A DNA stretch of 60,172 nucleotides, filler included. It is 3 parts of 3 records of this genome, joined end to end, with 100 filler letters (N's around TTAATTAATTAA, not from the genome) between each part and the next. Parts side by side here need not be neighbours in the genome. Positions count along the whole stretch, not along the records: positions 1 to 24,768 come from DRR723986_18144; 2 more parts are not named here. The stretch is one strand, 5' to 3'. The notes beneath the pieces were generated by a model. It had not been told where the DNA came from. It did no database searches and worked only from the letters and a program-made list of their open reading frames with translations. Position numbers and translations under genes: made by a program. Each line of letters opens with the position of its first letter. Position 1 is the stretch's first letter. Positions 5,728 through 26,675 of the stretch are shown here, piece by piece.

Positions 5728-7623
5728 TTACCAGCCAGGATTTTGAGTCATTTCCGGATACAAAGACACATCAGACACTTTTAGCGGCAGCCAATAGTGC
5801 TTTTCTGTAAATGGTCGCTCCAAAATCACTACTTCCCGGATGTTTACCACACGGTTTTGTGTAGGATCATCTGCATTAAAATCACCCGCTCGGTCCATCT
5901 CCACTGATGATTTGATGGTGTATGGTTCTTCGATCAGTAGCATCCAGCGGCGAAGGTCTGTAAAACGGTGCCTTTCGAAGGCTAGCTCTACCGCTCGCTC
6001 TCTTCGCAATTCAGGCAACAATGCATCCACAGATCCCACAAACTTGGAATGGATCGAAGCCATACCAGCACGGTCTCTAAGCACATTTAATGCATCTACA
6101 GCAGACTTACCAAAAGTAGCACTAGGCGTACTAGGTGAATTGTACCCCATTAAGGTAGCCTCAGCGTACATCAGATAAATGTCCGCCACTCTCATGTAAG
6201 GCACATTGATGTGGAGTGAAGTACCCCAATCGTATGCGTTATCATATTTATTAGCCTTGAGCGGCACAAATTTTCTACTCATGTAGCCGGTTCGGCTTCC
6301 GTTGCTCAAGTTTCTATAGCTTCCTCCACTGAATAGGTTTGCATATCGATTTACCTCCTGACTTTGATCAGGAATGGATCCCTGGATCACCTTGACACCA
6401 TCATAAGTGATGTCACTGTAAAATCTTGGGTCACGGTTTTTCCATGGATAATTAGGATCGTAGCCTGATTCCGGATCCGCCTTTGTGATATCGTCGGGAA
6501 GCGGTAAACCATTAGCCATACCATAATTTTGATGAACATAATTAGCAGTGGGCATAAACATCGTCGCATCGCCCTGACTGATCAATAAAGGCATGAACTG
6601 CTTTGAAATCTGGTAGTTACTACCATTGGCACCTGTAGTAGGAGCCCTGAACATGGCCTCAGATCCTCCAGGCATAGCCCAGTTTTGACCCGTGGTGTAG
6701 AAGAGATTGGACTTCTGCGCAAAAGGGATCAAGGAATACAAGGTCTCTCCTGCTTCTATCAGCGTGAGAAGCTCTCCGAAAACATCCGCAGCCTTTTTGC
6801 TATAAGCTGCATCGTAGGATTTATTTCCGCTATCGGTGTAGTTCATCAAGGGGCTAGCTGCCCAAAGCAAATTCTTACCTAAATAGCCTAGCGCCATTGC
6901 CTTGTTAATACGCATGGTGTTTTTTCCCAGCGTTCTTTTCCCTGCAGTGGTATTATCCCAATTTAATGGAAGCAAGTCAGCAGCTCTACGAAGATCCTCA
7001 GCGACTCTATCCGCACTTTGACGATATGTCAATCTTGGAAGTCTAAGCTTTTCATCACTTGGTAATACGGTATCTATGTACGGCATTCCACCGAAATACT
7101 GAATCAACTGAAAGTGAAACCAGCCTCTGAAAAACAAAAGCTGACCTTCAATCAATCTTCTTTCTTCGTCTGTCGCATCTGTAAGTCTATCTAGGTTTTC
7201 AAGTCCTAAATTTGCTTTACGGATTCCTTGCCAAGCTAAAGGCCAAAGGGCTTTTTGATGATGACCACCAGTAGTGGATGCGTTTCCTTTGTCAAACCAC
7301 CCTACACCGCCACCTAGTTCAGCTTGCCAGGCCCAGAAATTCCCTCTATCGAAATTATAGGAGACAGTAAATGTGCCTGCTGTGGATTCTATTTCATCCT
7401 CTCCAAAATTCCAAGCACTCACCCAATAAGCAAGTGTGAAGTTTGGTACGGCGTGATAAAGTTCTTCAGTGAATCCCTGAAAATTGGTGAAATTCTGGAA
7501 AGCAGTTTCTTCCGAAATGATTGAATCTGGAGAGCGCTCTAAGTAATCTTCACAGGAGCTAGCAGATAGCAAAATAGCCATCATAAAACCTCCTTTTATA
7601 AAATTCTTTATATAGTTGTTCAT
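5728..7623 (-). CDS. SusD/RagB family lipoprotein (first pair)
   Basis: Lipobox ASSC; RDPRF, YMRVADIYLMYAEA, ERAVELAFERHRFTDLRRW, QNPGW. Start moved to the ATG at 7623, which avoids overlap with susC. Confidence 0.95.
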   Translation of the reverse strand: MNNYIKNFIKGGFMMAILLSASSCEDYLERSPDSIISEETAFQNFTNFQGFTEELYHAVPNFTLAYWVSAWNFGEDEIESTAGTFTVSYNFDRGNFWAWQAELGGGVGWFDKGNASTTGGHHQKALWPLAWQGIRKANLGLENLDRLTDATDEERRLIEGQLLFFRGWFHFQLIQYFGGMPYIDTVLPSDEKLRLPRLTYRQSADRVAEDLRRAADLLPLNWDNTTAGKRTLGKNTMRINKAMALGYLGKNLLWAASPLMNYTDSGNKSYDAAYSKKAADVFGELLTLIEAGETLYSLIPFAQKSNLFYTTGQNWAMPGGSEAMFRAPTTGANGSNYQISKQFMPLLISQGDATMFMPTANYVHQNYGMANGLPLPDDITKADPESGYDPNYPWKNRDPRFYSDITYDGVKVIQGSIPDQSQEVNRYANLFSGGSYRNLSNGSRTGYMSRKFVPLKANKYDNAYDWGTSLHINVPYMRVADIYLMYAEATLMGYNSPSTPSATFGKSAVDALNVLRDRAGMASIHSKFVGSVDALLPELRRERAVELAFERHRFTDLRRWMLLIEEPYTIKSSVEMDRAGDFNADDPTQNRVVNIREVVILERPFTEKHYWLPLKVSDVSLYPEMTQNPGW

Positions 7624-10600: not shown

Positions 10601-11071
10601 ACGGACTGTAACACCTGGGAGAGCCAAGCCTGTAGGATCAAGCACTTGACCTGTGATCTCCACTACTGCAGGGATTATTTCCTTTGGCTGAGATACTTCC
10701 TTTTTCGGTCCTCTTGTGATGTGAATATTATCATCCAGCTGCACAAATTTTAGATTTGTCTGACTGGAAATCTCATAAAGCACCTCGGAGAGCGGTACTT
10801 TGTTCATAGCCAGATTTACGGTAAGCTCATCAACTGGAACCTTCACTTTATTATAAGTGAACATAAATCCGCTCTGTTTCTCTAGTTCAGGGATAACTTT
10901 GTTTAGTGTACTTTCATTGAAATTGACCGTTACGGTAATATCATCAAGTCCTTTTAACTGAGCATGTCCATTATTTGCCATAAGGACTGCCGTGAAAAAC
11001 AGCTGAAAGATGAAAGCACACACAAAATATTTGGAAAGCATAATGATTTTCCTAAGTATTGATTTTTCCAT
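7637..11071 (-). CDS. SusC/RagA TonB-dependent transducer with N-terminal STN-type signalling extension
   Basis: An extra ~120 aa precedes the CarboxypepD-like domain; LKDASATAVFGSRGANGVIIVTTKRG; follows fecR. Confidence 0.95.
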   Translation of the reverse strand: MEKSILRKIIMLSKYFVCAFIFQLFFTAVLMANNGHAQLKGLDDITVTVNFNESTLNKVIPELEKQSGFMFTYNKVKVPVDELTVNLAMNKVPLSEVLYEISSQTNLKFVQLDDNIHITRGPKKEVSQPKEIIPAVVEITGQVLDPTGLALPGVTVRIKNTTKGTTTDLDGNYSISVNEGETLVFSFMGFNEKEVTIANQAVVNIILEENLQSLEEVIVVGYAEQKKETIVGAVAQTNGEVLKRTGGVSNVGSALTGNLPGVITSASTGVPGGESPQIVIRGQNSWNGNSPLILVDGVERPEFFNTMDIASVETISVLKDASATAVFGSRGANGVIIVTTKRGREGKAQITANFSSTMKVVSKLPGKYDAYDAIGVRNSAIENELSANGAGWADYIPYSIRDKYRNPANLEESERYPNIDWQETLFKDYAMAYNANVGIRGGTKFTQYFASIDFQNEGDLFRDFDNNRGYDPGYNYNRLNFRSNLDFQLTSSTKLQVNLGGSYGTRKTPWGGGNSSSFWSAAYGNPPDAFLPVYSDGAWGVYTPDDVAAENSVRILAVSGLQYLTTTQLSTNFVLNQDLGMIIKGLNFRGTLAIDNSFTEINRGVNDLYNTPFQKWIDPATGLHLYDDVVDANSRFDFREAVTWGTASGTVNGAQRRLYYQGQLNYSTKIGTNHNLTLMGLMSRQQDATGSMIPSYREDWVFRANYDYKNKYLLDYSGAYNGSEKFAPEYRYAFFHSGGIGWVISEESFMKSISVIDFLKIRASYGEVGDDNIGGRFLFMDQWSYGNSSQLGIVGEGGEYSPYTWYRQSSVGNPEVHWETVYKTNIGLEFDILNGMINGNFEYFKDDRKDILMSGDRSIPSYYGTTAPAANLGRVITNGFEFTLGLNHTFENQIRVWADFTMTHAENVVKERDDPELQVAYQKDQGYQLGQYRTHISNGYYSSWDEVYGSTQNNSNDQFKLPGGMQILDFNGDGIIDSFDAAPYGFASVPENTYSTNIGVEWKGLSLYVQFYGVNNVTRDVPLSSLNNRLNRVYEEGSYWSEDNMNPDSPMPRWGALMPGYSNGERYLYDGSYLRLKNAEIAYLFNSNWVRNIGVETFRVYLNGNNLLLWTDMPDDRESNFSSAGYAGAYPTVRRINLGVNVSF

Positions 11072-11078
11072 ACTTTTG
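11071..11078 (+). promoter_or_regulatory. Bacteroidota primary-sigma -7 element (TACTTTTG), antisense to susC and overlapping its start codon
   Basis: Matches the TAnnTTTG consensus; no clear -33 box. Confidence 0.5.
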
Positions 11079-11082
11079 ATAT

Positions 11083-11180
11083 GATTTTAAGTGTGTATTA
11101 CTTGAAATTTTAGCCTTTGATTAATTTGACGATTGAGGCAAAGGCTATGGGCAGGAAAGCTTCGGCTTTCCTGCTTTTTT
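11083..11180 (+). ncRNA. Predicted cis-antisense sRNA of the PUL (fecR-susC intergenic)
   Basis: + strand -7 element, internal hairpin TAGCCTTTG/CAAAGGCTA (11111-11147), then a + strand intrinsic terminator. The 5' end is estimated. Confidence 0.5.
11151..11180 (+). terminator. Rho-independent terminator oriented antisense to the PUL operon
   Basis: GCAGGAAAGC-TTCG-GCTTTCCTGC followed by TTTTTT on the + strand only. Confidence 0.75.
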
Positions 11181-11226
11181 CATTTTCAGCTGGTGTTTGT
11201 GTAGGGGTTTTTCATAGGTTAGTAGG

Positions 11227-12255
11227 TTATGGGTTTGAAATTGTTACTGTTTTTCCTTTGATTTTATAGTCAAATTCGGAGGAGATACTTATGCCGTCCA
11301 AGACTTGATTCAATGGTTTGTTATGATAGCTTCCAGAGTACGACCATCCTTTATCTACCTTTAAGGTGCTGTTGATTGTGACGCCAAACCACACTTCCAT
11401 TTTTCGGATAACTTCAGGGTAGCTGTCGTCTTTAAAAATCAGGTATTGGTCTTTCCAGCCAAATATTTCAAGGGGATCAAAATCTGTTTTAGTCACTTCA
11501 CCATTCTTCCGTTTGATTAGCATTTCATGGGGAAGGAGAGTGATTACTCCCCCAGTGGAATCAGCCACTTCTACCTTGCCTTCTACCAGCGCCAGTTCAA
11601 AGTCTTCTCCGTTTTTTAGGTTAAATGAAGTGCCTAAAACGGTCACCTGATTGTTGTCTATTTGGATTACAAATGGACGATTAGGATCCTTCGTCACATC
11701 AAAAAATGCTTCTCCCTGCATCCGGATGGTTCTTTTTTCCCCATCGAAATTCTGCGGATAGGCTATGCTACTAGCTGCATTGAGGTGAACATATGTTCCA
11801 TCCGGCAATTGAAATTTATATTTCTGACCTGCAGGATTGTCCACAGTCAACCAAGTAATTACTTGCTGATTTTCAGACTCTACCTTATTCCTTTTGTTGA
11901 GAATATCGATTCCGTAAACTGTAGAAAAAACCAAGAACAAGATGGCTGCAGTTTTATGCCAGCCACTCCAATGGAAATGACTGCCATCTGCCCTTTTCTG
12001 ATGACTCTTTTCCACGATGTCCTCATACAAATCCATATAGGCCTGATCAGAAAGCACATACCGGTCTTTGTAATCGATCATTGCGATTATCTCTTTAGCC
12101 TTTTGGAGAACTGGTCTTCTTTCGGGATTATTTTCAATCCATTTAAGCCAAAAGTGATTAGTTTCTTCTCCAGGATTTTTCACCCACTGAATAAAAAATT
12201 CATCGTTCAAAAAGTCCTCGATCTCAAAATCTATGTATTTATATTTTTCGTCCAT
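11227..12255 (-). CDS. FecR family anti-sigma factor
   Basis: N-terminal DEFFIQWV, single TM segment, LPDGTYVHLNAAS, GEAFFDV, VLGTSFN. Confidence 0.93.
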   Translation of the reverse strand: MDEKYKYIDFEIEDFLNDEFFIQWVKNPGEETNHFWLKWIENNPERRPVLQKAKEIIAMIDYKDRYVLSDQAYMDLYEDIVEKSHQKRADGSHFHWSGWHKTAAILFLVFSTVYGIDILNKRNKVESENQQVITWLTVDNPAGQKYKFQLPDGTYVHLNAASSIAYPQNFDGEKRTIRMQGEAFFDVTKDPNRPFVIQIDNNQVTVLGTSFNLKNGEDFELALVEGKVEVADSTGGVITLLPHEMLIKRKNGEVTKTDFDPLEIFGWKDQYLIFKDDSYPEVIRKMEVWFGVTINSTLKVDKGWSYSGSYHNKPLNQVLDGISISSEFDYKIKGKTVTISNP

Positions 12256-12278
12256 GGTAGTGGCAGGAAGCGCGCTGG

Positions 12279-12932
12279 TTAGGCTTTCTTAACTTCAAAT
12301 ATTTCTTTAAGCTTCTCCATGGCTCTATAAACCAAGGTTCTCGCTGTTTTAACTTCACTGAAATTCATCACTTCAGCTATTTCTTTATAGGATAGCTCTT
12401 CTTGATAGAGCATAATAATCGCTTGTCTTTGTCTGGTAGGCAGTTTGTTCAGCGCATTGGCAATTTCCAACTTCTGCTCCAAGGCAAATTCTTCATCTAT
12501 CAATTTGGTCTCATGCGAGGTCTCGATGTGAAAAATGTTTTCCTCATTTTCAAGAGATGTCAAATCGGCATTTAGCTTTCTCTCTTTCTTGAGAAACTTG
12601 AAAAGTTCTCTGTGAAAAACGGTGAACAGATAACCTTTAATTCGCTGTACATCACCTAACTTGGCTTGGTTCTTTCGTAGATCTACAAACATTTTCTGAA
12701 GACAATCCCTGATTAATTCTTCTTGCTTGCAGATTTGCATGCCATAATTAAATAAGTCAGCTACATATTTTCGGTAGATGTAGTTAAAGGCGGCTTCATC
12801 TCCACTTTTGAAAGATGTCCAGACCTCACGGTCTGATTTTTCAGTGTATACCACCATCACTTGACTATGCTGCATATATAGCATAGCTGAGGTATCGGAA
12901 GTTTCAATAGGTTTATTCTGGGTTTTTTTCAT
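12279..12932 (-). CDS. ECF-type RNA polymerase sigma-70 factor
   Basis: GDEAAFNYIY region 2; LNKLPTRQRQAI..LSYKEIAEVM region 4; adjacent to fecR. Confidence 0.93.
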   Translation of the reverse strand: MKKTQNKPIETSDTSAMLYMQHSQVMVVYTEKSDREVWTSFKSGDEAAFNYIYRKYVADLFNYGMQICKQEELIRDCLQKMFVDLRKNQAKLGDVQRIKGYLFTVFHRELFKFLKKERKLNADLTSLENEENIFHIETSHETKLIDEEFALEQKLEIANALNKLPTRQRQAIIMLYQEELSYKEIAEVMNFSEVKTARTLVYRAMEKLKEIFEVKKA

Positions 12933-13075
12933 TTGAACAGGAAGGTATCTCCACTCTTCACTTATAAAGAGTGTTTTTAGAGGTCAAACAACCTCAAAAT
13001 TTTATTTTATTTTTTTCTGTATATGAAAAAATCTACCACACACAGTTTTATCCCCTGATAATTAGACAATACACC

Positions 13076-16188: not shown

Positions 16189-18675
16189 TTATAGGTTTTT
16201 AGATTTCAATATATAAGAATTTCCAGGTTCTGTTTTCAAGTCATAAACACTGGTTTCCCCAAGATCAGGTAAGTCGATTTGAGCGGCTGGCGAGATGATT
16301 GGATCGGCAGTGACTGGTACTTGATAGAAAGGATTCGGGTTTTCACCACGCGCTTTCATAAGACCCTTACCCTTTTCTAGAACCAATGAGTTTGGAACTC
16401 GTAAGCGCAGGTTTCCTCCGATTGTCGATTTAATTACCGCTTTTTCAATCTTCCCATCTTTCCATGTCAGTTCTACTACCTCAAATCCACCTTTAGCACG
16501 AATTCCTGAAATGCTTCCCTCCTGCCAAATGTCTGGTAAAGCTGGCAATAGATGAATTTCCCCATTTGCACTTTGAATTAACATCTCGGTAATGCCTGAA
16601 GTACAACCAAAGTTTCCATCAATCTGGAAAGGTGGGTGCGCATCAAAAAGGTTGTTGTAAGATCCGCCACCTCCCTGATTGGAACCTACAGGTGAGAGCT
16701 GATTTTGGATCAGTTTATAGGCATGATTGCCGTCCAGCATTCTTGCCCACCAGTTGACTTTCCAACCCATACTCCAACCCGTAGAAACATCTCCACGCTG
16801 GATTAAGGTGTTTTTGGAAGCAGAATACAATTCTGGAGTACGCAATGGGGAAATCTGATTGGATGGGAATAAGCCATACAAATGGGAAATATGACGGTGA
16901 TGATCATTAGGATCGTCAATATCATCCAGCCATTCCTGTAGCTGACCGTGTTTTCCTATGTGCATAGGAGGTAATCGATCTCTCATGGCTTTCAGTGAAT
17001 CTGCAAAAGATTGATCTTTACCAAGCATCTCCGAAGCTTGAATCACTGCGCTGAAGGCATCAAAAACCAATTGGTTGTCCATCGTAGTTCCAGCATCTAA
17101 GGAGGAACCATCGTGTGCAGCTGGAGCATTTTCTGGAGAAGTACCAGGATTTACTACAAGCCAAGGTTTGTCTGGATGCTCCACCAAAAAATCAACATAA
17201 AACATCGCTGCACCTTTTAAAATAGGATAGATAGATTTCAGATAATCCATGTCTCCATTGTATTGGAAGTGATCCCAAAGATGCTGGCTGGTCCATGCTC
17301 CACCACCAGACCAAATTCCCCAGAAAATTGCATCGACCGGGCCGGTAATTCTCCAGATGTCCGTATTATGATGTGCCATCCAACCTCGCGCGCCGTACAT
17401 CACTTTTGCCGTTTCCTCACCTGCTTCAGCCATCTCGGAAACCATTTTCAGGAAAGGCTGATGAAGCTCAGCCAAGTTGGTTTTCTCAGCCGGCCAATAG
17501 TTCATCTGCGCATTGATATTGATGGTGTATTTACTGTCCCATGGCGGGGACATTTCTTTGTTCCAAATCCCCTGCAGGTTTGCCGGCTGTCCTCCTGGCT
17601 GGGAAGAAGAAATCAACAAATACCTCCCATACTGATAATACAGCGTAACCAGCTGCGGATCATCTCCTTCTTTAAAGCCTTTGATACGCTCATCCGTTGG
17701 GAGTTTGGAGGCTTCAGTTTTTCCTAAATTCAGACTCACCCGGTCGAAATATTTTTGATAATCCACCAAATTCGTCTTCAGTAAATCATCAAAAGATTTG
17801 GTAGCAGCTTTTGCCATAAATGCGGCTGCTCTCCCATTTTCATCTCCACTGAGATCTAAGTAATTGTTGAAATTGGTAGCAATGGCAATATAAATCGTCG
17901 CTTCATCTGCATTTTTTACCGTGATGGAATTGTCAGTGGAAGAAAGCGATCCTCCTTGATTTTTGATTTTAGTTAGGCTTTTGAATTTTACCTGCCCTTT
18001 TACACCTTCATGATCTGTGGTTGTGCCGGAAATTGCCAATTCCTTTTCTGAATTGAGGGCAACCGTTGCATTTGGCTGAGGGGTAGCCATGGATGCTGTG
18101 AAAGAAATCATCCCAGGCTTGCTGGCAGTCAGGTGTACAGCAATGACGTTGTCAGCGAAGGAAGCAATGGCTTCACGAGTATAGGTCACACCATCCACCA
18201 CATAACTTACTTTGGAAATCGCCTGAGAAATATCCAGCTCCCTACGATAATCTGTAAAAGTAGAATGTCCTTCAAAAGCTATGTTCAGGTCTCCCACAGG
18301 CTGAAACTTCTGTCCATGTGACTTCTTGCTTTGTATAGTTTTAGCGGCTAGCTGTTCTGCTTCTTTTTGCTTTCCTTCGAAAATCAATCTTCTGACTTCA
18401 GGCAGAGATGCCAAAGCATCCGGGTTATCATTTCTATTTGGACCACCGGACCAAACGGTATGCTCGTTAAGCTGAATCAGCTCATTTTCTACATTTCCAT
18501 AGATCATTGCTCCCAACCTGCCATTTCCGATTGGCAAGGCATCCGTCCACACATCGGCTGCTGGTTGCTTGTACCAAAGCGTGAGATCAGAGCTTTCCTG
18601 AGCTTTTATCTGCATGGAAAAAGCCAGAAAAAGCACTGCAAAAAAAGTTCTTAAACAATATTTACTCGTATGCAT
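16189..18675 (-). CDS. GH95 glycoside hydrolase (alpha-L-fucosidase / alpha-L-galactosidase)
   Basis: ALPIGNGRLGAM, YGRYLLISSS, ANLQGIWN, HRHISHL, PFQIDGNFG. Start set at ATG 18675 (18699 is an alternative) because the upstream ORF extension lies in a DNA repeat. Confidence 0.93.
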   Translation of the reverse strand: MHTSKYCLRTFFAVLFLAFSMQIKAQESSDLTLWYKQPAADVWTDALPIGNGRLGAMIYGNVENELIQLNEHTVWSGGPNRNDNPDALASLPEVRRLIFEGKQKEAEQLAAKTIQSKKSHGQKFQPVGDLNIAFEGHSTFTDYRRELDISQAISKVSYVVDGVTYTREAIASFADNVIAVHLTASKPGMISFTASMATPQPNATVALNSEKELAISGTTTDHEGVKGQVKFKSLTKIKNQGGSLSSTDNSITVKNADEATIYIAIATNFNNYLDLSGDENGRAAAFMAKAATKSFDDLLKTNLVDYQKYFDRVSLNLGKTEASKLPTDERIKGFKEGDDPQLVTLYYQYGRYLLISSSQPGGQPANLQGIWNKEMSPPWDSKYTININAQMNYWPAEKTNLAELHQPFLKMVSEMAEAGEETAKVMYGARGWMAHHNTDIWRITGPVDAIFWGIWSGGGAWTSQHLWDHFQYNGDMDYLKSIYPILKGAAMFYVDFLVEHPDKPWLVVNPGTSPENAPAAHDGSSLDAGTTMDNQLVFDAFSAVIQASEMLGKDQSFADSLKAMRDRLPPMHIGKHGQLQEWLDDIDDPNDHHRHISHLYGLFPSNQISPLRTPELYSASKNTLIQRGDVSTGWSMGWKVNWWARMLDGNHAYKLIQNQLSPVGSNQGGGGSYNNLFDAHPPFQIDGNFGCTSGITEMLIQSANGEIHLLPALPDIWQEGSISGIRAKGGFEVVELTWKDGKIEKAVIKSTIGGNLRLRVPNSLVLEKGKGLMKARGENPNPFYQVPVTADPIISPAAQIDLPDLGETSVYDLKTEPGNSYILKSKNL

Positions 18676-18753
18676 TTTGGGTGTGTTTTTACTATTCATA
18701 TAATTCTCCGCAATCTTGCCAGATACTAAAATTTCATTTCTCTCCACCTTCTT

Positions 18754-18865
18754 CGGTCTCAAATCTCCAGTCTTCCGTCTCCCGTCTCCCGTCTTCCGTC
18801 TTCCGTCTCCCATCTTCCGTCTCCCGTCTTCCGTCTTCTGTCTTCCGTCTCTCGTCTTCCGTCTC
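18754..18865. repeat. Tandem heptamer array, 16 x CCGTCTY (RAGACGG on the coding strand)
   Basis: Units parsed in register from 18754 to 18865; on the coding strand it begins 2 nt after the dehydrogenase stop. Confidence 0.95.
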
Positions 18866-18867
18866 CT

Positions 18868-19878
18868 TCACATTTCCACCACCGCTTTGATCACTCCAGT
18901 CTCGGGATTCAGCCAAGACTGAAAATCATTCTTCACCTGATCAAATTTCACTTTATGAGTAATGTACTTTTCAACTGAAAGTTTTCCAGATGCCATCGCT
19001 TCCAAGACCTGATCGAAGTCTTCCCTAGTGGCATTTCTGCTACTCATCAGCGTCGCTTCCCGCTTATGAAATTCAGGATGGGAAATAGCAATTTCACCTT
19101 TTTGTAATCCAACTAAGACATAGGATCCGCCATGGGCGATATATTGAAAACCTGAGTTGATCGCAACCAAACTCCCAGTGGCATCGATCACTACATCGCA
19201 GAAATCCCCATCGGTGATTTCCTGAATTGCCTCATTAGCAGCTTTTCCGGCCTTTACCACATAGGAAATATTCCATTCGCTCTTACAAAACTCAAGTCGC
19301 TTCTCGTTGATATCCATCGCGATCACAGTAGCTCCAGCAATCCTAGCGAATTCCATCACTCCCAATCCAATGGGACCAGCTCCGATCACTAAGACAAATT
19401 GCCCGGGCTTCACTCCTGCCCTTCGTACGCCATGAGCGCCGATGGCAAAAGGTTCGGCCAATGCAAGTTGCTCCAAGCTCAGCCCTTCTTTTTTGACCAA
19501 AGAAGTAATCGGCAAGGAGACATATTCCTGCATTCCGCCATCCTCATGAACCCCAAATACGCTGATTTTCTGACAGCAATTGGGTTTACCATTTCTGCAG
19601 GCTACACAAGTCCCGCAATTGAAATAGGGAATCACCGTGACTAGATCACCTTTCGTGATTTCCTCATTAGCTCCAATTTCCACCACTTCTCCCGCCAACT
19701 CATGTCCCAAAATTCTAGGGTAAGAGAAAAAGGGCTGAGTACCTTCAAATGCATGAAGATCCGTTCCGCAGATGCCAATTCTCTTGATTTTGACGATGGC
19801 CCTTCCTTCAGAAAGCACGGGCATTACGCCCTCTTTATATTCAAATTCTCCCGGCGATATGCAGGATAATAGATTCAT
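18868..19878 (-). CDS. Zinc-dependent MDR dehydrogenase (L-galactonate 5-dehydrogenase/YjjN-like)
   Basis: GICGTDLH, GHE, structural Zn CGTCVAC..CC, GAGPIG, SSRNAT. Start overlaps the upstream stop. Confidence 0.85.
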   Translation of the reverse strand: MNLLSCISPGEFEYKEGVMPVLSEGRAIVKIKRIGICGTDLHAFEGTQPFFSYPRILGHELAGEVVEIGANEEITKGDLVTVIPYFNCGTCVACRNGKPNCCQKISVFGVHEDGGMQEYVSLPITSLVKKEGLSLEQLALAEPFAIGAHGVRRAGVKPGQFVLVIGAGPIGLGVMEFARIAGATVIAMDINEKRLEFCKSEWNISYVVKAGKAANEAIQEITDGDFCDVVIDATGSLVAINSGFQYIAHGGSYVLVGLQKGEIAISHPEFHKREATLMSSRNATREDFDQVLEAMASGKLSVEKYITHKVKFDQVKNDFQSWLNPETGVIKAVVEM

Positions 19879-20969: not shown

Positions 20970-21025
20970 AAATCAAGTTTATCAAAACAATAAACCAATA
21001 TGATAAAAATGACCAATAGTATATT

Positions 21026-21041
21026 GGTCAAACGTTTGACC
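21026..21041. promoter_or_regulatory. Probable LacI-family operator
   Basis: Perfect 16-bp palindrome GGTCAAACGTTTGACC with central CG, between the divergent AKR and lacI genes. Confidence 0.8.
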
Positions 21042-21119
21042 TAATATCCTGAAGCTCTAGCTAAAGCCCATTCAGCTTTCGAGCTTTTGTTCTAAATTAG
21101 GTGTGCCAAGCAGCCCAGA

Positions 21120-22133
21120 ATGAAAAAGAAGAGAATCAGCATCACTGATATAGCCAATGCACTCCATGTAACCCCGTCCACGGTTTCCCGGGCGCTGAAT
21201 GGAGGGGGAAAAGTTTCTGAGAAAAAAAGAAATGAGATTTTGGCTTTGGCAAAGGAACTTGGCTATAGACCCAATCCTATTGCTAAAAGTCTTCTCGAAA
21301 ACAAGACAAATACCATTGGGCTGATTATCCCGGAATTCACGCATCATTTTTACAGCCGCATGCTTGCCGGCATAGAGAGCGTCACCTCAGAGGCAGGTTA
21401 CCAACTGCTGATTTGTACCTCCAATGAAAACCAGACCCAGGAAATAAAATCCACACAAACACTTTTGGATGCCCGTGTAGATGGGATTCTAGCCACGATC
21501 TCCAAAATGAATGACAAGTTTGAGCATATACAGGAGGTAATGGACAGCGGGACACCACTGGTTCTGGTGGATCGTTTTTCTGAGGAAATTGAAACTCCCT
21601 ACGTGATCTCAGATGATTTCAAGGGCGCCTTTTCTGCGGTGGATTACTTATGCCAAATCGGATGCAGAAACATCCTTCATATCAAAGGCCCAGATAACCT
21701 CTCAACTACATTCAACCGCTTTATGGGTTACAAAGAAGCGCTTCGAAAGCATGAAATCGAATTGAAAGAAGAACTTCTGCTGGAAAGTTCTGATACAAAT
21801 CTGCTGGAAAAAATCAGGTTTTGCCTGACAAATCACCAAGTGGATGGTGCATTCACTTACAGTGATTACCTGGCATTTGAGATCTATAAAGTAGCGAGCG
21901 AACTTAAAATCCCGATTCCCCAGCAATTGTCTGTGATTGGCTATGCCGATGAACCTATTTCTACTTACATCAACCCTACCCTAAGTACAGTAAATCAACA
22001 GCCATTTGAAATGGGTGCATTTGGAGCCAATTACCTATTGAATAAAATCAATAATCCTGAAATCGGCCTGGAGATCAAAAATCTGGAGACTAGGCTGGTG
22101 ATTAGGGGATCTTGTAAGGGGCTGGAGGGGTGA
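21120..22133 (+). CDS. LacI family transcriptional regulator
   Basis: ISITDIA..STVSRALN HTH, YRPNPIAKSL hinge, periplasmic-binding-protein-like sugar domain. Confidence 0.96.
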   Translation: MKKKRISITDIANALHVTPSTVSRALNGGGKVSEKKRNEILALAKELGYRPNPIAKSLLENKTNTIGLIIPEFTHHFYSRMLAGIESVTSEAGYQLLICTSNENQTQEIKSTQTLLDARVDGILATISKMNDKFEHIQEVMDSGTPLVLVDRFSEEIETPYVISDDFKGAFSAVDYLCQIGCRNILHIKGPDNLSTTFNRFMGYKEALRKHEIELKEELLLESSDTNLLEKIRFCLTNHQVDGAFTYSDYLAFEIYKVASELKIPIPQQLSVIGYADEPISTYINPTLSTVNQQPFEMGAFGANYLLNKINNPEIGLEIKNLETRLVIRGSCKGLEG

Positions 22134-22184
22134 GAGGGGGCTAGAGAATTAAATATAGTATGGGATAATAAAAGGTAATGTCTA

Positions 22185-22280
22185 AGCTAAACATTTCAAA
22201 TGCGTCCAATCCGTCGAGTTCAGCATTCCTGTGCAAACAGCTAAGTAAATCGATTGGACTTAGCAACTGTTAGTGGAATT
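22185..22280 (-). mobile_element. Degenerate attC-like site closing the second cassette
   Basis: On the minus strand, CCACTAAC overlaps the TAA stop and is the exact reverse complement of GTTAGTGG at the cassette start. Internal IR GTCCAATC/GATTGGAC; distal GTTTAG. Confidence 0.5.
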
Positions 22281-23388
22281 CTGTAAAGTTCTCTAGGACC
22301 ATTTCATCATCAAGTAGGAGTTCCGTTTCTTCTTTGGTTGTTCGCTCGAAAATTTCAGTGTTTAGTTGAATGGTTAAAAGCCCTTCATCATCAAAGTCTT
22401 CAGATACTAACCTCCATTTTATTTTGACTTCTTGGCTGTGTTCAACCGTCGGTCGAATGCAAATATCATCTGTTCGTATGCTATCTTTTTGTACAAGAAT
22501 TTGATCTTTTGGTTCAAATAAACCGTCTGTCGTTCCTTCATATATCCAAGTATCATAGGAGTAATTTGTCATATCAAGGAATTTATTCTGTTTGTTCACC
22601 GTATCCGCACTTATCCCATCACATTCAAATGAAAAATAGAGTTTATAATTCTTGATTGTTGTATTTCCGCAATTTGTTATTCGAATTGAGAAGACAGATG
22701 AACTTTTATTGAAACTTGTTCCATTAATATAGAAGCGAACTGGCTGAGGTTCTGTATCTATCTTTCTTCTAGTCTCTCTATTTTCTTCTGGAGAATAACT
22801 ATAAAGTCCAAAAGATGAGTGATCGAATGGTTTGAATTTATATGTTTTGAGATTTTTAATAAGCTTAGGGTTGAATTCAAGATCTTTTTTACCGTTTTGA
22901 AAAGTTACCAAAACATCAAAGGCTATTTTGTGATTAATATTTTTTACGTACCAATCAAAAGTTCGCTTGTTTTCTTCTATCAGATCAGCAATATCCTCCC
23001 AACTGAATAAGTGAATTTCAAATAGTCCAGCGTCTCGATTCTCTATATCTTTTATTCTAATGAATTCTTCAATTCTGGAATCTTTGTTAGCGGAGGTTGC
23101 AAAATAGAATTTCTTTAGCTGCGGGCTAAAGTGTTGTGCTTTCTTGATCTCTGAGTCTATTTCCGATTTAGTTAATTGACTTTTTGTGTAATCATCTTTT
23201 CCCTTACACTGTATTCCATAATATTCGTTCTCATTCTTCGGAATTCCATAGATGTCAACACCGTGTTGATTTCGACCAGATCGTCCGTTTTTCTTTATCT
23301 CGTGGCATTCCCAGATTTCTCCCCACAGTTTTTTGCAGAGAGATTCAAAGTCTTGCCAGTTTTCAGGTTTTTGAATACTTTTTTTCAT
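22270..23388 (-). CDS. Mrr-like PD-(D/E)XK endonuclease N-terminal domain fused to an uncharacterised beta-rich C-terminal domain
   Basis: WQDFESLC..GRSGRNQHGVDIYG..GIQCKGK motif. Very AT-rich. ATG at 23388 lies just after the cassette start site. Confidence 0.75.
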   Translation of the reverse strand: MKKSIQKPENWQDFESLCKKLWGEIWECHEIKKNGRSGRNQHGVDIYGIPKNENEYYGIQCKGKDDYTKSQLTKSEIDSEIKKAQHFSPQLKKFYFATSANKDSRIEEFIRIKDIENRDAGLFEIHLFSWEDIADLIEENKRTFDWYVKNINHKIAFDVLVTFQNGKKDLEFNPKLIKNLKTYKFKPFDHSSFGLYSYSPEENRETRRKIDTEPQPVRFYINGTSFNKSSSVFSIRITNCGNTTIKNYKLYFSFECDGISADTVNKQNKFLDMTNYSYDTWIYEGTTDGLFEPKDQILVQKDSIRTDDICIRPTVEHSQEVKIKWRLVSEDFDDEGLLTIQLNTEIFERTTKEETELLLDDEMVLENFTEFH

Positions 23389-23395
23389 TTGAGGG

Positions 23396-23533
23396 ATTGC
23401 CACTAACGTTCCAGCATATGGCTTATGGCGGCTTCAAAAGACATATTTTTCATCCCAAGGCAATGTTGATTCGAAGATCAGTTTTCGAATTAAAGGAAAT
23501 CCCACCATAAGCTATTTGCAATGTTTAGATAAG
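23396..23533 (-). mobile_element. attC-like recombination site between the two nuclease genes
   Basis: Minus strand reads ..TCTAAAC-ATT-GCAAATAGCTTATGGTGG..(spacer)..CCGCCATAAGCCATATGC-TGGAAC-GTTAGTGGCAAT: 18-bp imperfect IR arms (15/18) bounded by AAC and GTT. Confidence 0.65.
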
Positions 23534-23538
23534 TTGTT

Positions 23539-24429
23539 CTATTTAATAATTTGTCCATTGTATGCAAACATTTTACCAAAGTATTTCATAAGGTCAGGTC
23601 TCATAAGAAGACAATTTTTTAAATGGAGATTTAAGCTAAAATTTAAGAATGAAAAGTTTATTGCTTGTCTATATTTTTCATCTTTGAATTCTACGAATAA
23701 CCATTCATATTCATTTTTCTTTGACTCTTCTATGAATTCAGGGAATAGTTCGATCCGACTTGAATTTGTTGATTTTTCAATAACCGCTTTTGCTAAAATG
23801 CCTTTGTCGAGGAGAACAATTAAATTTGGTAAATATTTATCTTCTGTTGTTCTAAGCAATTCCTTAATATCACCAATTGAAAAGTCATTAGAGTCAACGA
23901 AAAACATAAATTTAAAGAGTGGGTTTTTAAATGGTCTAGAGTCCCGAACATGAAATGAAATTCCGGGTCCAAAATCTAAGCCTGCTTCTTGCGTAAGTTG
24001 AGTGTGAGGGGTATTGTTTCGCTTTAGAAAATTATAAATGTTTTTAGTAGATTTTATGAAATCCTTCAGGTAGTTTTTGTTGGCATAGTATGTAGACTTT
24101 ATCTCAGCAAAGGCATAGATTGATTCATACGGAAAATATTCAGTTCCATTTTCAGCCTTGAATAAAACGGGCGAACCAATATTGTCCGCTATTACTAGAT
24201 CTAATTGACTGCTAGTATGCAGTAATTCATCTACAATATGACCTTGACTTACATAATATTTAAGAGGTAATTTTCTTCTTATTACTCTTCTCACAGAGTT
24301 TTCAACTTCATCACCCGAAGCGTCTATGTCCTTTGTTTTATGTAAAACTTTACTTTTTTGTCGAGATGAGAATATCTCTTCAACGTCTTGTTGTAGAATG
24401 TCTAAAATTTCAAGTTTTGGTAATTCCAT
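23539..24429 (-). CDS. DUF6602-like PD-(D/E)XK nuclease-domain protein
   Basis: GDEVE..LP..Y.VSQGHIVD..SSQLDLVIAD..P..FPYESIYAFAEIKS pattern. Very AT-rich. Confidence 0.7.
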   Translation of the reverse strand: MELPKLEILDILQQDVEEIFSSRQKSKVLHKTKDIDASGDEVENSVRRVIRRKLPLKYYVSQGHIVDELLHTSSQLDLVIADNIGSPVLFKAENGTEYFPYESIYAFAEIKSTYYANKNYLKDFIKSTKNIYNFLKRNNTPHTQLTQEAGLDFGPGISFHVRDSRPFKNPLFKFMFFVDSNDFSIGDIKELLRTTEDKYLPNLIVLLDKGILAKAVIEKSTNSSRIELFPEFIEESKKNEYEWLFVEFKDEKYRQAINFSFLNFSLNLHLKNCLLMRPDLMKYFGKMFAYNGQIIK

Positions 24430-24452
24430 TCGTCTTGTGATATCTTCTTACA

Positions 24453-24478
24453 ATTACTGGTAACACTTGTATATACTT
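24453..24478 (-). mobile_element. attI-like half site at the head of the cassette array
   Basis: Minus strand GTATATACAAGT-GTTACCAGTAAT has the same GTTA-N5-AAT end as the attC-like site but no partner arm. Confidence 0.4.
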
Positions 24479-24576
24479 AATCCATTATCCTATAGCTTAA
24501 ATTACTATTATCTACAGGTTCTCCTGCCTCCAAATTAAGGATTTCGTCAGAGGGTTTTGATCAGGAGCTGATTTTT

Positions 24577-24765
24577 TTTTATGGGTAATGCATTTAAAAG
24601 GATTGGAAGAGAATTCAGGATAGTATCATGTCCTTTCAGCCTTTTATGCTGAAGCTTCAAGCTCTGAGTATAAATTTTCAACCTATTATCCTCAATATTC
24701 AGGTTCTGAGTATGAATTTTCAACCTATTATCCTGAAATTTTAAGCTATTATCCTGAATGTTCAC
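24577..24765 (-). repeat. Degenerate 21-bp tandem repeat (8-9 units, with 42-bp super-period), open as a heptad-repeat ORF to 24547
   Basis: Units such as TTAAAATTTCAGGATAATAGG, CTGAATATTGAGGATAATAGG and TTGAAAATTCATACTCAGAAC; truncated by the contig end. Confidence 0.8.
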
Positions 24766-24768
24766 ACT

Positions 24769-24868
24769 NNNNNNNNNNNNNNNNNNNNNNNNNNNNNNNN
24801 NNNNNNNNNNNNTTAATTAATTAANNNNNNNNNNNNNNNNNNNNNNNNNNNNNNNNNNNNNNNNNNNN
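24769..24868. other. Artificial contig linker
   Basis: N44-TTAATTAATTAA-N44, with stops in all six frames. Confidence 0.98.
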
Positions 24869-25646
24869 CTATGACAAGCCGATGATTTATTATCCGCTTT
24901 CGGTGCTCATGATGGCAGGAATTACTGAGGTACTAATCATTACTACACCGGAAGATACTGATGCATTTCAGCGATTATTAGGTGATGGATCACAAGTTGG
25001 TTGCAGGTTTGAATATGCTGTTCAGCCTAGCCCTGATGGCTTGGCTCAGGCTTTTATTATTGGAGAGAAGTTTATTGGGGACGATGATGTTGCTTTGATA
25101 TTGGGCGATAATATATTCTACGGATCTGGTCTTCACAATACGCTGAAGGAACACACCAATCCAAAGGGTGGAGTAGTATTTGCCTATCATGTCAATGATC
25201 CTGAGCGATACGGAGTTGTGGAATTTGATGATGATCAGAAAGCAATTTCTATCGAAGAGAAGCCAGAAAATCCAAAATCAAATTTCGCTGTACCTGGGCT
25301 TTACTTTTACGATAATAGAGTGGTGGAAATTGCCAAGAAAATCAAACCAAGCCCCCGTGGTGAACTCGAAATCACGGATATCAATACGGAGTATTTGAAA
25401 ATGGGTGAGCTGCAAGTTGCTATCCTAAATAGAGGAACCGCTTGGCTAGATACCGGAACTCATCAGTCACTTTTGCAAGCAGCTCAATTCGTAGAAGTAA
25501 TAGAAGAGCGACAAGGATTGAAGATTGGCTGCATCGAAGAAATCGCCTATAGAGCTGGGTTTATCGGGGAAGAAAAGCTACTGCAAGCTGCAGATAAATT
25601 AGGGAAAAGTGGCTACGGAGGTTACTTACGAAAATTGATAAAATAA
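24869..25646 (+). CDS. rfbA: Glucose-1-phosphate thymidylyltransferase (5' truncated)
   Basis: [11 protein letters not shown] at the contig start, [38 protein letters not shown]. Confidence 0.97.
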
Positions 25647-25652
25647 GAACAA

Positions 25653-26675
25653 TTATTTCTTAATAAGTTCCTCAAGGCTAGTTTTCATGATTTGCCCCAT
25701 GTTCTTGCATTCCAGGAACTTATCATTTCCATAATGCTTTGCCAAATCCACTTTCAATGAAGCTATATTTTCGGGAAGTGAGATCGTATCGTGCTCCATA
25801 GAGCGCAAAATATCAAGAATACCTTGCCGGGAAGATTTGAGCCGTGTGGCGATCAATGCACGCTCTTCTTTCTGGTATTGAACCATTGATTCGGGGGTGA
25901 TATACTTCATCCCCAACTGAATCAACACATTGTTTTCCTTAAAATATTGGGGTAGGTAAATCGATTTTTTGCCCTCATAGGATTGCTGATCAAAGTCAAT
26001 CGCTCGGATTCTATAATGCGTCTCCTCGAAATCGGGCGTAACGTCAATCACGAAATTGGAGGAATGCATATCTCCCAGAAGTCTTACGAAGCAGCGCTCG
26101 TTGAATTTGACAAATTCCTTGGCTAATCGAATGGGATTCAAATGCGGATCCGTCATGTGAGCACGCATGAATAAATCGCCAGGAATACCAGCAATATGCT
26201 CCTCGATCAGCGTGTTTTGATGAACTAGGTAGGAAATCCTATTTGGTGAAAGTAAATGCTCAAATTCCAGCCCATACACACGTGACGCATCTGCATTTTT
26301 GACATAGAAGTAATCAAAGTTATCGTTGATTCTGTTTACAATTCTCACACGGAAAGGCTGAGTATTCCCATAAACACACAGATCAATTCTGTCCACATAT
26401 AGATGCTCCATGACAGACATATCTCCACCTGCTTTCAGGAGGGCATAGATCTTTTTGACGTTCAGGTGAATTTCCTCACGATCGGATTGATCGTAGAAAA
26501 CCGTTTCCCAAAGAGTGTCTTGTTCCTTTGAATCGTAAAGTGCAATAGAACTGGAATAACGTAGCAATTCATAATAGTGGATTGGAATATCCACTTCACG
26601 GGAATACTTAATCAGGTAGCGTCGTAGTCCAGGGCTGATAGGGTATATGCGCTTCTTTTTGCTGATTAATGCCAT
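25653..26675 (-). CDS. Hypothetical protein with PI3K/HipA-like atypical kinase motifs
   Basis: 340-aa ORF with YFYVK, LIEEHI, LGDMHSSNF and AIDFD in kinase order. Confidence 0.7.
   Translation of the reverse strand: MALISKKKRIYPISPGLRRYLIKYSREVDIPIHYYELLRYSSSIALYDSKEQDTLWETVFYDQSDREEIHLNVKKIYALLKAGGDMSVMEHLYVDRIDLCVYGNTQPFRVRIVNRINDNFDYFYVKNADASRVYGLEFEHLLSPNRISYLVHQNTLIEEHIAGIPGDLFMRAHMTDPHLNPIRLAKEFVKFNERCFVRLLGDMHSSNFVIDVTPDFEETHYRIRAIDFDQQSYEGKKSIYLPQYFKENNVLIQLGMKYITPESMVQYQKEERALIATRLKSSRQGILDILRSMEHDTISLPENIASLKVDLAKHYGNDKFLECKNMGQIMKTSLEELIKK

Follow-up and report, generated by a model that had tools for sequence, protein, structure and literature searches.

A chromosomal cassette array in a Bacteroidota genome that probably works like a sedentary integron, and the IntI-like recombinases that head such arrays in its relatives

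The Bacteroidota are regarded as almost devoid of integrons, and the domain specific to IntI counts both as the defining marker of integrons and as a requirement of their mechanism; no enzyme without the IntI insertion is known to recombine folded sites. The closest described systems are the sedentary chromosomal integrons, such as the V. cholerae superintegron with its VCR sites: a long chromosomal array of co-oriented, low-GC, single-gene cassettes, mostly of unknown function (toxin-antitoxin and defence-type cassettes among them), with a lineage-specific, homogeneous family of hairpins with AAC and GTT cores. Stop codons may lie inside the inverse core, the two ends of a cassette are complementary to each other, and cassette content varies between close relatives. 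In the “reverse” integrons of the Treponema type the integrase, a canonical IntI, is co-oriented with the cassettes. In the Xer/dif modules of Acinetobacter plasmids, genes lie between sites for tyrosine recombinases and are mobilised together with them as units; the sites are short (28 bp), double-stranded and of alternating orientation, and there is no hairpin, head or dedicated recombinase.

Published sources describe the IntI insertion as essential for integron function (PMC8138268), state that IntegronFinder surveys of the Bacteroidota yielded a single complete integron, from Salinibacter, and otherwise In0 elements alone (PMC9024848), and report V. cholerae integron cassettes with DUF6602 (“Damona”) and Mrr_cat as defence systems (bioRxiv 10.1101/2024.07.02.601686). 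We found no published description of the system presented here in the open-access literature; In0 or CALIN elements from Bacteroidota that bear on its novelty may be among the entries of the supplementary integron tables of the IntegronFinder papers.

The window, that is, the whole stretch of 60,172 nucleotides that was analysed, is made of three contig parts joined end to end, and its positions 22182-24768 are probably the LacI-proximal end of a chromosomal cassette array that works like a sedentary integron. The arrays of this strain and its relatives share all of the above traits with the V. cholerae superintegron and differ from it in that the linked recombinase lacks the IntI insertion and has two extra N-terminal modules, is co-oriented with the cassettes with an attI-like site after its stop codon, and in that several attI-like heads can stand inside one array. 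The order of recombinase, attI and cassettes on one strand is that of the Treponema-type integrons, but the linked recombinase falls under the IntI family cut-off and is without the insertion. Like an integron remnant (CALIN), the window has at least two attC-like sites (23398-23533 and 22182-22281) and no recombinase nearby, a likeness that holds if the sites are attC; unlike a CALIN, its array has an attI-like head of its own. The flanks of the genes are 100-136-nt hairpin elements and not XerC/XerD sites of about 28 bp. All genome-wide statements are drawn from relatives of the window's strain, among them its nearest genome (G001, with flanks 96% identical) and another complete genome (G088). 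The features of the locus are as follows.

24630-24768, minus strand: tandem 21/42-nt repeats upstream of the head, up to the contig end (from the sequence; the linker begins at 24769)
24465-24600, minus strand: head, a conserved leader that closes with an attI-like site, ...TATACAAGT directly before GTT (from searches in relatives)
23408-24464, minus strand: cassette 1, 5' boundary GTTACCA (G at 24464), gene 23539-24429, a predicted DUF6602 / NucC-like PD-(D/E)xK nuclease
23398-23533, minus strand: attC-like hairpin between the cassettes, inverse-core candidate TCTAAAC (23529-23523), core GTTAGTG (23407-23401) (from folds)
22193-23407, minus strand: cassette 2, 5' boundary GTTAGTGG, gene 22270-23388, with an Mrr_cat_2 domain at the N-terminus
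22182-22281, minus strand: terminal attC-like site, weaker than the others, with CCACTAAC, a stem of about 10 bp and GTTTAGC (22192-22186) (from sequence and folds)
22134-22181, minus strand: tail, from the last site to the stop of the LacI-family regulator gene; similar tails end the G001 and G088 arrays at the same lacI junction
21120-22133, plus strand: LacI-family regulator gene (ORF), a conserved chromosomal flank outside the element

Positions 22182-24464 thus hold two cassettes, a DUF6602 nuclease followed by an Mrr-like nuclease, with the attI-like head before them and hairpin sites with AAC...GTT cores between them. Both ORFs lie on the minus strand, co-oriented, one of 296 aa at 23539-24429 and one of 372 aa, counted from the ATG, at 22270-23388, and their GC content is 0.30-0.37 vs. 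0.40-0.48 in the flanks, in keeping with the two AT-rich, co-oriented genes that a sequence-only reading of this DNA had described. The motifs from which that reading started, GTTACCAGTAAT at 24464-24453 and GTTAGTGGCAAT at 23407-23396, were all found on the minus strand where it had placed them. The first gene matches Pfam DUF6602 at 3.2e-19 and the PADLOC models PD_DExK (1.1e-21) and NucC (2e-17); the protein of the second matches Pfam Mrr_cat_2 at 2.8e-6 in its N-terminal part, with no assignment for the C-terminal region.

The array had been called a “two-cassette” one, which is right for what is assembled and falls short for the array itself: a contig-join linker (N44-TTAATTAATTAA-N44, 24769-24868) cuts it at 24768, so two cassettes are its assembled extent only. 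What the window shows is no more than the part next to lacI of an array that is longer, and the thymidylyltransferase gene past the linker is no true neighbour, because the linker joins contigs there. At the other end, the LacI-family regulator gene is 96% identical to that of G001 up to its stop and also borders the arrays of G001 and G088. The comparison of this locus between relatives, proposed along with the sequence-only reading, found different cassettes: in G001 and G088 the same locus carries 10-14 cassettes unlike those of the window, and the interval between the metallophosphoesterase gene and lacI holds about 14 (G001) and 11 (G088) co-oriented, small, low-GC ORFs, none of them common to the window. 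The cassettes of this locus do turn over between relatives.

The sites have a common anatomy. Their folds show two stems, an R-box stem and a long one with bulges, together with an internal and a variable loop; the sites are 72-268 nt long and have the more stable fold on the bottom strand in 13 of 16 cases. AAC and GTT are invariant or at least 90% conserved across 12 sites, AAC and CGTT are invariant across 13 sites from five genomes, and of the 15 pairs predicted by RNAalifold 11 have changes on both sides (compensatory). The spacer between the two cassettes (23398-23533, 136 nt), which had been proposed as attC-like, is a member of this genus-wide family of about 138 nt; its imperfect stem has 16 pairs, in blocks of 3, 2 and 11, and it folds at -14.9 kcal/mol on the bottom strand and -13.7 on the top, and scores 100.8 bits against our covariance model R1, a score given by construction since the spacer is in the training set. 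The terminal site folds at -11.0 kcal/mol on both strands and gives a weak partial match to R1 on the opposite strand (22227-22278, plus strand, E 5.5); its status follows from its position and from the pairing of the ends of cassette 2. Folding of both window sites, another check proposed at the outset, gave hairpins with stems, and the energies lie within the range of shuffled sequences on both strands (z -0.3 to -0.9, not beyond chance), so that fold energy alone cannot carry the case. The window cores depart from GTTRRRY, and the bulged bases are candidate extrahelical bases only.

Full-length matches to the ~138-nt site were found with R1 in 88 of 123 genomes of the genus, with 16 hits or fewer per genome, so the elements of the window are far from isolated; since the model also fits the loops of its seven training sites, these counts refer only to the ~138-nt subclass, and short or long sites, as well as the terminal site of the window, are missed. 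MAFFT alignments of the sites were out of structural register, and no second covariance model was therefore built. A home-made scanner for AAC...GTT hairpins was dropped, as it was too noisy and missed true sites. Rfam at permissive thresholds had no match in 21000-26000, nor did an Rfam scan for a group II intron at the array end of another locus (L036, 9400-12400).

The ends of the cassettes follow a simple rule. Directly behind its 5' GTT, a cassette has a stretch of 8-10 nt that is perfectly complementary to a word ending in AAC at its own 3' end; this holds for 21 of 29 cassettes, taken from six arrays. Own ends pair over at least 8 nt in these 21 (median 9) vs. 13 of 812 non-own pairs (1.6%), and none of 5000 permutations reached the observed mean. 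The ends of one hairpin, in contrast, pair no further than the conserved core: the median is 10 nt for a cassette's own ends vs. 4 nt for the two ends of a hairpin, with the own ends longer in 15 of 17 comparisons. The cassette logic that had been read from the window alone is in this respect general, and it offers a simple computational means to delimit such cassettes.

Cassette 2 follows the rule, with own ends complementary over 8 nt (non-own maximum, 5); CCACTAAC at 22276-22269 is its inverse core and does contain, as had been pointed out, the TAA stop of the gene (22272-22270). The ends of cassette 1 in the window pair over only 3 nt, and the caution first attached to them was well placed. 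Homologues of both genes nevertheless occur as cassettes with such flanks elsewhere. Two DUF6602 homologues (L132 and L133) are cassettes with own-end complementarity of 10 nt. Among Mrr-like loci, 8 of 77 pair over at least 8 nt vs. 11 of 916 controls, two of them with the boundary word of the window; the homologues in a Flavobacteriales MAG (L054) and a Pedobacter (L062) share the boundary word GTTAGTGGC and have full hairpin sites. A word kept with its gene across different bacterial orders argues against the reading of these elements as MITE- or REP-like repeats that is weighed below.

Metagenome contigs that come from two runs within a single study agree with the DUF6602 cassette at about 98% as far as 24464 and differ beyond it. 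The breakpoint falls exactly at the predicted GTT and not, as would have told against cassettes, away from it. No excision joints were seen in these metagenome contigs, which gave this one useful breakpoint and come from public runs that contain only 5-6% of the sampled words.

The head is present in 8 of 121 genomes of the genus, with three copies in the G001 array and four in that of G088. The last ~20 nt before its GTT align with the sites that adjoin the recombinase genes of G001 and two other relatives (G038 and G067), which fits the attI-like role first suggested for it, and in the window it would be classed as an orphan attI-like site. The repeats upstream (24630-24768) recur in G001 (families D2 and D3) and matched query positions 2-137 in the head searches. 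The -7 box of the Bacteroidota is TAnnTTTG, and the most conserved motif of the head, TTAATTTGG, fits seven of the eight positions of this consensus; the head possibly promotes transcription.

That a tyrosine recombinase encoded elsewhere might serve the array had been part of the sequence-only reading, and in relatives such an enzyme, an IntI-like tyrosine recombinase, does lie directly upstream of the arrays, co-oriented with the cassettes. In the closest relative it has 454 aa, and its gene adjoins radA and polA. The array-linked recombinases have the domains Phage_int_SAM_4 and Phage_integrase. The best NCBIfam family of the G001 enzyme is TIGR02249, at 216 bits vs. a cut-off of 265; the best match among PDB sequences is 2A3V (VchIntIA; E 1.2e-38), which is also the best Foldseek match (E 9.2e-18). 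Where IntI4 (2A3V) has 66 residues the recombinase has 28, that is, the IntI insertion is missing, and the structure model has no helix at that position. On these comparisons, the array-linked recombinase is the nearest relative of the integron integrases, without their extra domain. Behind its gene, a GTT site follows 33-98 nt past the stop; the first cassette obeys the end rule over at least 9 nt in five of seven loci and is off by one base in the other two, and on ten contigs a co-oriented match to the site model lies 1-10 kb downstream.

The N-terminus of the recombinase has about 175 extra residues that form two alpha/beta modules, with a weak likeness to those domains of UvsW, XPB and HARP that sense DNA structure. 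The best match in a fold search was the N-terminal domain of T4 UvsW (Z 6.7, rmsd 3.2, 65 aligned residues), with XPB at 6.1 and HARP at 4.6; on the calibration of the search tool, such middling scores may reflect a common arrangement, and the likeness is therefore a hint only.

The 24.8-kb contig part with the array carries no recombinase (by ORFs and tblastn), and tblastn for the gene or a remnant of it returned nothing at E <=10 in the window and ten head-bearing loci. Among the eight genomes with a head, three had no match to the recombinase, and the recombinase with its N-terminal domain was found in only 27 of 123 genomes of the genus vs. 88 of 123 for the site family. For the window's strain, the likeliest enzyme is a tyrosine recombinase with its gene in another part of the genome, a presence extrapolated from G001.

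Compared with the classical definition of an integron, no recombinase lies in the window, no IntI over the family cut-off was found in 61 genomes of the genus, and the array-linked enzyme of G001 is without the additional domain. An attI beside the integrase gene is present in relatives, and the window has an orphan head only. Sites of attC type are present by their cores, covariation and folds, with cores that deviate from the classical consensus. Discrete cassettes with the end pairing expected of a crossover at the core are present as well, in the window for cassette 2 and not for cassette 1.

In the mechanism that we propose, a cassette would consist of one promoterless gene or gene pair and, behind it, an imperfect palindrome as its site. 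In the site, a long bulged stem and a variable loop lie between an inverse core that ends in AAC and a core that starts with GTT. Excision and insertion most likely proceed through circular cassettes, with a site-specific crossover inside the conserved GTT; on such a crossover, the stretch of 8-10 nt behind a cassette's 5' GTT is expected to pair with the inverse core at its own 3' end. The substrate would be folded single-stranded DNA. The circle of cassette 2 would have the hairpin site closed at the core onto ...G/TTAGTGGC... The recombinase would act at its own attI-like site, with the cassettes after it on the same strand, and the head would serve as an orphan attI-like site and might also provide a promoter for the cassettes.

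A different enzyme could do the same work. If the cassettes were moved by the housekeeping XerC/XerD, like the dif modules of Acinetobacter plasmids, the array-linked recombinase would have some other role. Xer-flanked modules are known (PMC7399989), Xer-level matches occur in every genome of the genus, and the site families extend to genomes where the array-linked recombinase was not found: site matches are present in 12 of 28 genomes without an IntI-like match above the Xer level, a level that we set post hoc at E 1e-27. We nonetheless consider this unlikely, as the sites are hairpins of 70-270 nt with variable loops rather than 28-bp double-stranded dif-like sites, and in the five loci noted above a dedicated recombinase has its attI-like site, with a rule-obeying first cassette, directly behind it.

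Still less probable is an integron remnant (CALIN) with cassettes moved by a canonical IntI, encoded elsewhere in the genome or brought by a mobile element. In the plan of their sites and in the end rule, the cassettes match classical attC ones, and CALINs without a nearby integrase are described as common (PMC9024848), but none of 61 genomes of the genus has a canonical IntI over the TIGR02249 cut-off, and the recombinases that physically head the arrays lack the insertion. Least probable of all, and in our view very improbable, are MITE- or REP-like palindromic repeats or terminators in a variable defence island with turnover by ordinary recombination: the ~138-nt elements are indeed a conserved multi-copy family of the genus, the window folds are unexceptional in energy and both genes are of the defence-like sort that clusters in variable islands, but terminal inverted repeats would make the ends of one element complementary, where it is instead the gene-flanking ends that pair (10 vs. 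4 nt, beyond every permutation), the breakpoint lies exactly at GTT, and arrays begin directly behind a recombinase gene.

Returning to the array as the probable end of a system like a sedentary integron, we have a cassette system with the full sequence signature of integron recombination and a linked recombinase without the IntI-specific domain. If this recombinase is the active enzyme, a whole branch of integrons escapes the marker by which they are detected, folded sites are recognised in a second way that invites comparison with IntI, and marine and other Bacteroidota carry many mobile cassettes that form a large, unannotated pool. A wider proposal, which we make tentatively and hold at somewhat less than even chances, is that of a Bacteroidota lineage of integrons, in which hairpin cassettes of attC type are recombined by relatives of IntI whose ancestors either lost or always lacked the domain supposed to be indispensable for single-stranded attC recombination, with two N-terminal modules that in the Cyclobacteriaceae recognise the folded site, and with an unannotated store of genes; if it is true, the arrays are a large store of defence and accessory genes missed by current integron finders.

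To that pool the window would, with an active recombinase, add two candidate single-gene anti-phage nucleases. From their domains and the reported cassettes, the two stand-alone nucleases (DUF6602 and Mrr-like) most likely act in anti-phage defence. They resemble Damona (DUF6602), Epona and Divona (Mrr-type) of V. cholerae, as that report describes them, in being single-gene nuclease cassettes in an array. Compared by domains, cassette 1 has the DUF6602 of Damona together with the same PADLOC side-hits (Cas PD_DExK and CBASS nuclease). Unlike Epona and Divona as described there, the Mrr-type protein of the window joins Mrr_cat_2 to its unassigned C-terminal region, with no holin or crr6 fusion.

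Judged by its sequence, the cassette array in the window is integron-like, and what is present is its distal end: two ORFs (GC 0.30-0.37, versus 0.40-0.48 in the flanks) with the GTTA-N5-AAT-type motifs and the stop codon within an inverse core that the sequence-only reading had described, all present at the minus-strand positions it gave. It had called the array a two-cassette one; both cassettes are in place, but the contig is cut at 24768, so that only the array's end is seen.

Features of the array end
24769-24868 and 54423-54522: linkers N44-TTAATTAATTAA-N44 joining three separate contigs and placing a stop in each of the six reading frames
24630-24768: tandem 21/42-nt repeats upstream of the head (also at L013 6626-6793, in the nearest genome, G001, and at loci L027 and L034)
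24464-24453, minus strand: motif GTTACCAGTAAT, 5' of the first ORF
23539-24429, minus strand: first ORF, 296 aa (cassette 1)
23407-23396, minus strand: motif GTTAGTGGCAAT, 5' of the second ORF
22270-23388, minus strand: second ORF, 372 aa (cassette 2)
22276-22269, minus strand: motif CCACTAAC, with the second ORF's stop inside

Since the linkers join separate contigs, gene neighborhoods across them are artificial, and the one at 24769 leaves the array cut within the tandem 21/42-nt repeats, which probably caused the assembly break. The thymidylyltransferase gene past this linker is thereby ruled out as a neighbor of the array; in G001 it lies about 200 kb off, on the other strand. Its genuine neighbor is a LacI-family gene (21120-22133), which shares 96% identity with G001 through its stop.

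Taken alone, the evidence in the window hangs on one 8-nt complementarity. Folding the 136-nt spacer did form an imperfect stem of 16 pairs, as had been proposed, but no fold of the window's two sites (spacer and terminal) beats shuffled sequence (z -0.3 to -0.9), and neither has a match in Rfam. In a sample of 29 cassettes from six arrays, the 14 nt from each 5' GTT were compared with AAC-ending words near the cassette's own stop codon (the end rule): perfect pairing of at least 8 nt was found for 21 of the 29 own ends (median 9, typically 9-10) versus 13 of 812 combinations with other cassettes' flanks, and none of 5000 permutations reached the observed mean pairing. The two ends flanking a gene show a median pairing of 10 nt, versus 4 nt for the two ends of one hairpin, the former being longer in 15 of 17 comparisons and shorter in none. 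Transposon-type inverted repeats would give the opposite pattern; such own-end pairing is expected of circular cassettes that have one site each and cross over in the core. Cassette 2 follows the rule (8 nt, where its best non-own pairing is 5); cassette 1 pairs over only 3 nt and does not, which bears out the earlier caution that its ends are poorly complementary. Past the ~10 complementary nucleotides, the usual reading is ..C/A-A-T on the core side (GTT-N6-[CA]AT, a consensus of which the GTTA-N5-AAT motif is part) and ACTG... on the inverse-core side, with position 11 a conserved mismatch within an otherwise 12-13-nt end pairing.

The same site plan recurs in every intergenic space of the arrays: on the coding strand, a ..AAC word, 2-6 nt, an arm of 15-20 nt, a loop of 10-150 nt, the second arm, about 7 nt and GTT. 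In 12 sites AAC and GTT show little or no variation, and AAC and CGTT are invariant across 13 sites from five genomes, Pedobacter among them. RNAalifold gave 15 pairs for seven sites, 11 of which have both-side changes in at least one sequence. As DNA, the sites fold into a short R-box stem, an internal loop, a long bulged stem and a variable loop. In 13 of 16 sites the fold of the bottom strand has the lower energy, with a difference from the top strand of as much as 7.8 kcal/mol; the window's sites give, bottom versus top, -14.9 versus -13.7 (spacer) and -11.0 versus -11.0 kcal/mol (terminal). That the substrate might be folded single-stranded DNA is offered as a proposal only. A covariance model trained on seven ~138-nt sites, which fits the loops too and so detects only the ~138-nt length class, found no additional site within the window; the scan of relatives suggested earlier did turn up similar elements, with full-length matches in 88 of 123 genus genomes (as many as 16 in one genome, spread over several loci in each). 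The ~138-nt sites are a lineage-specific repeat family, in which they resemble the VCRs of Vibrio.

Downstream of lacI, cassette content differs wholly between the window and two relatives. Past its LacI gene, G001 has a low-GC stretch (0.32-0.38) of about 10 kb that contains some 14 small, co-oriented ORFs and is bordered on the far side by a metallophosphoesterase gene; in the one-contig genome G088, this pair of genes encloses about 11 ORFs. Neither array has a cassette in common with the window or a recombinase on either side. Most of their cassettes are without a Pfam family, the remainder matching DUF6843, amidohydrolase, CrtO, TPR, DinB-like and CarboxypepD_reg. The head of the window's array (24465-24600) is a conserved leader, present in 8 of 121 genus genomes, and its most conserved motif resembles the -7 promoter box of Bacteroidota and may be a promoter. 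The ~20 nt at the end of the head, just before GTT, align with sites that lie behind recombinase genes in G001, G038 and G067, which marks the head as an orphan attI-like site. Three copies lie inside the G001 array and four inside that of G088:

L013 (G001) 5286-5461, 6400-6575 and 12858-13033: attI-like heads
L029 (G088) about 4590-4764, 7235-7412, 8345-8535 and 10255-10431: attI-like heads

Each head inside an array has a conserved tail before it and 1-8 cassettes after it, and in these two genomes the locus resembles a tandem series of several head-cassettes-tail units. The 21/42-nt repeats also occur at further loci, without the leader, in G070 and G037. The long leaders of G088 (L029 4316-4764, 7920-8535, 9684-10431) hold several short GC-rich hairpin repeats that recur between leaders, e.g., around CCACGGGTTG and GACCACGAAGTGGTC, and may be REP-like elements or structured RNA.

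Two metagenome runs of one study contain contigs with a ~98% identical DUF6602 cassette (cassette 1). Their match to the window stops at 24464, the G of the predicted GTT, past which they continue into unrelated sequence, placing a breakpoint at the GTT as anticipated. Other metagenome homologues (66-67% identity) are cassettes with 10-nt end pairing and the inverse core directly after the stop, which suggests that cassette 1 in the window has lost its original 3' site. Among 77 usable of 80 loci with homologues of the Mrr-like cassette 2, end pairing reached at least 8 nt in 8 (versus 11 of 916 controls) and at least 9 nt in 7 (versus 2 of 916); the other 69 do not follow the end rule, which means that the majority of homologues lack the cassette form. 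Of the eight, those in a Flavobacteriales MAG and Pedobacter psychrophilus carry the window's boundary word GTTAGTGGC and complete hairpin sites, and in Polaribacter a tyrosine recombinase gene has a copy as the first cassette past its 3' end.

A tyrosine recombinase of the kind postulated to be encoded elsewhere does head such arrays in relatives, and it is from these, not from the window, that it is known. On contig 5 of G001, polA and radA are followed by a 454-aa tyrosine recombinase, with a GTT site 33 nt past its stop on the same strand and then two typical-site cassettes to the contig end. Its domains are Phage_int_SAM_4 and Phage_integrase (residues 178-445), and its top NCBIfam family is the integron integrase TIGR02249, at 216 bits versus a cut-off of 265 that none of 61 genus genomes passed; the best matches in these genomes cover model positions 6-184 and 240-315, skipping those between. 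The V. cholerae integron integrase 2A3V is the best solved relative by sequence (E 1.2e-38) and by Foldseek (E 9.2e-18, archaeal XerA behind). Only 28 residues stand against IntI4 residues 180-245, and the predicted structure (mean pLDDT 80) has no helix between residues 355 and 375. The ~175 extra N-terminal residues are predicted to form two similar alpha/beta modules, whose likeness to the T4 UvsW N-terminal domain (Z 6.7), XPB damage-recognition domain (Z 6.1) and HARP (Z 4.6) is only suggestive by the tool's calibration. Within the genus, 27 of 123 genomes have the modules, and so do 13 of 401 genomes sampled from the phylum, spanning 6 of 179 genera; the recombinase bearing them is in 5 of the 8 head-bearing genomes, the others (G081, G083, G097) having no match to the N-terminal-domain query.

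Shorter IntI-like recombinases (frames of 372-404 aa) likewise precede site-model matches, and the two forms together give ten contigs with a co-oriented match 1-10 kb downstream. With the Xer-level split at E 1e-27 or lower (set after viewing the data), 33 of 61 genus genomes have an IntI-like match above Xer level, and site-model matches occur in 30 of these 33 versus 12 of the 28 others, a descriptive comparison of related and often incomplete genomes. Of seven recombinase loci, each from a different genome, five have a first cassette whose ends pair over at least 9 nt, and in the other two it is one base off perfect pairing. Source names for the family are tyrosine-type recombinase, XerD and, in few cases, "site-specific tyrosine recombinase/integron integrase," and its closest named homologues identify the genus as Algoriphagus. 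Recombinase-linked arrays in two genomes (L036 about 9804, L037 about 100-126) end in an inverse core changed to ..TAAT with the same flanking sequence directly after it, so that the crossover position seems to be where the distal junction falls; Rfam gave no group II intron at the L036 end (9400-12400). Cassettes behind the recombinase include a Gp49/HigB-like and HTH pair of toxin-antitoxin type in G070 (L036 9031-9803) and, as first cassette in G048, an APH-family phosphotransferase (L041 8056-9072). Two 307-aa recombinases (G001:C2:95-940, G001:C19:777-1619) match nearly the whole integron-integrase model bar positions 180-213; such recombinases lie at contig ends in several genomes.

The array is integron-like by every sequence criterion tested (site plan, end rule, cassette turnover, GTT breakpoint and, in relatives, a platform of recombinase and attI-like site), but the defining integron criterion, the IntI domain, is missing from the relatives' array-linked recombinase, which we regard as the most likely candidate for the enzyme acting on the window's sites. 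Passages in Smyshlyaev et al. (PMC8138268) call the IntI insertion "essential for integron function" and, in an integron-like subgroup, "not fully conserved." The portion of the IntegronFinder 2.0 paper (PMC9024848) on Bacteroidetes reports only In0, with the sole complete integron in Salinibacter ruber, and a passage in a review lists Bacteroidota among integron-bearing phyla without detail; a search of main texts returned no description of Bacteroidota hairpin-site arrays headed by insertion-less recombinases.

The cassette 1 protein matches DUF6602 (3.2e-19), its nuclease core also matching Cas-associated PD-DExK and NucC models; in that of cassette 2, Mrr_cat_2 covers residues 15-118 and about 250 more residues are without any family. 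Homologues of both spread across many Bacteroidota families, the best, from metagenomes, being only 89 and 80% identical, respectively. V. cholerae integron cassettes are reported by Darracq et al. (bioRxiv 10.1101/2024.07.02.601686) to include single-gene defense systems with DUF6602 (Damona) and with Mrr-type nucleases (Epona and Divona); we infer that both window nucleases may likewise serve in defense. Elsewhere in the window, short tandem repeats at 18681-18922 yield repetitive peptide ORFs on both strands (GDGRRKT-type) and are located at the start of a large glycoside-hydrolase-like ORF (16189-18813).
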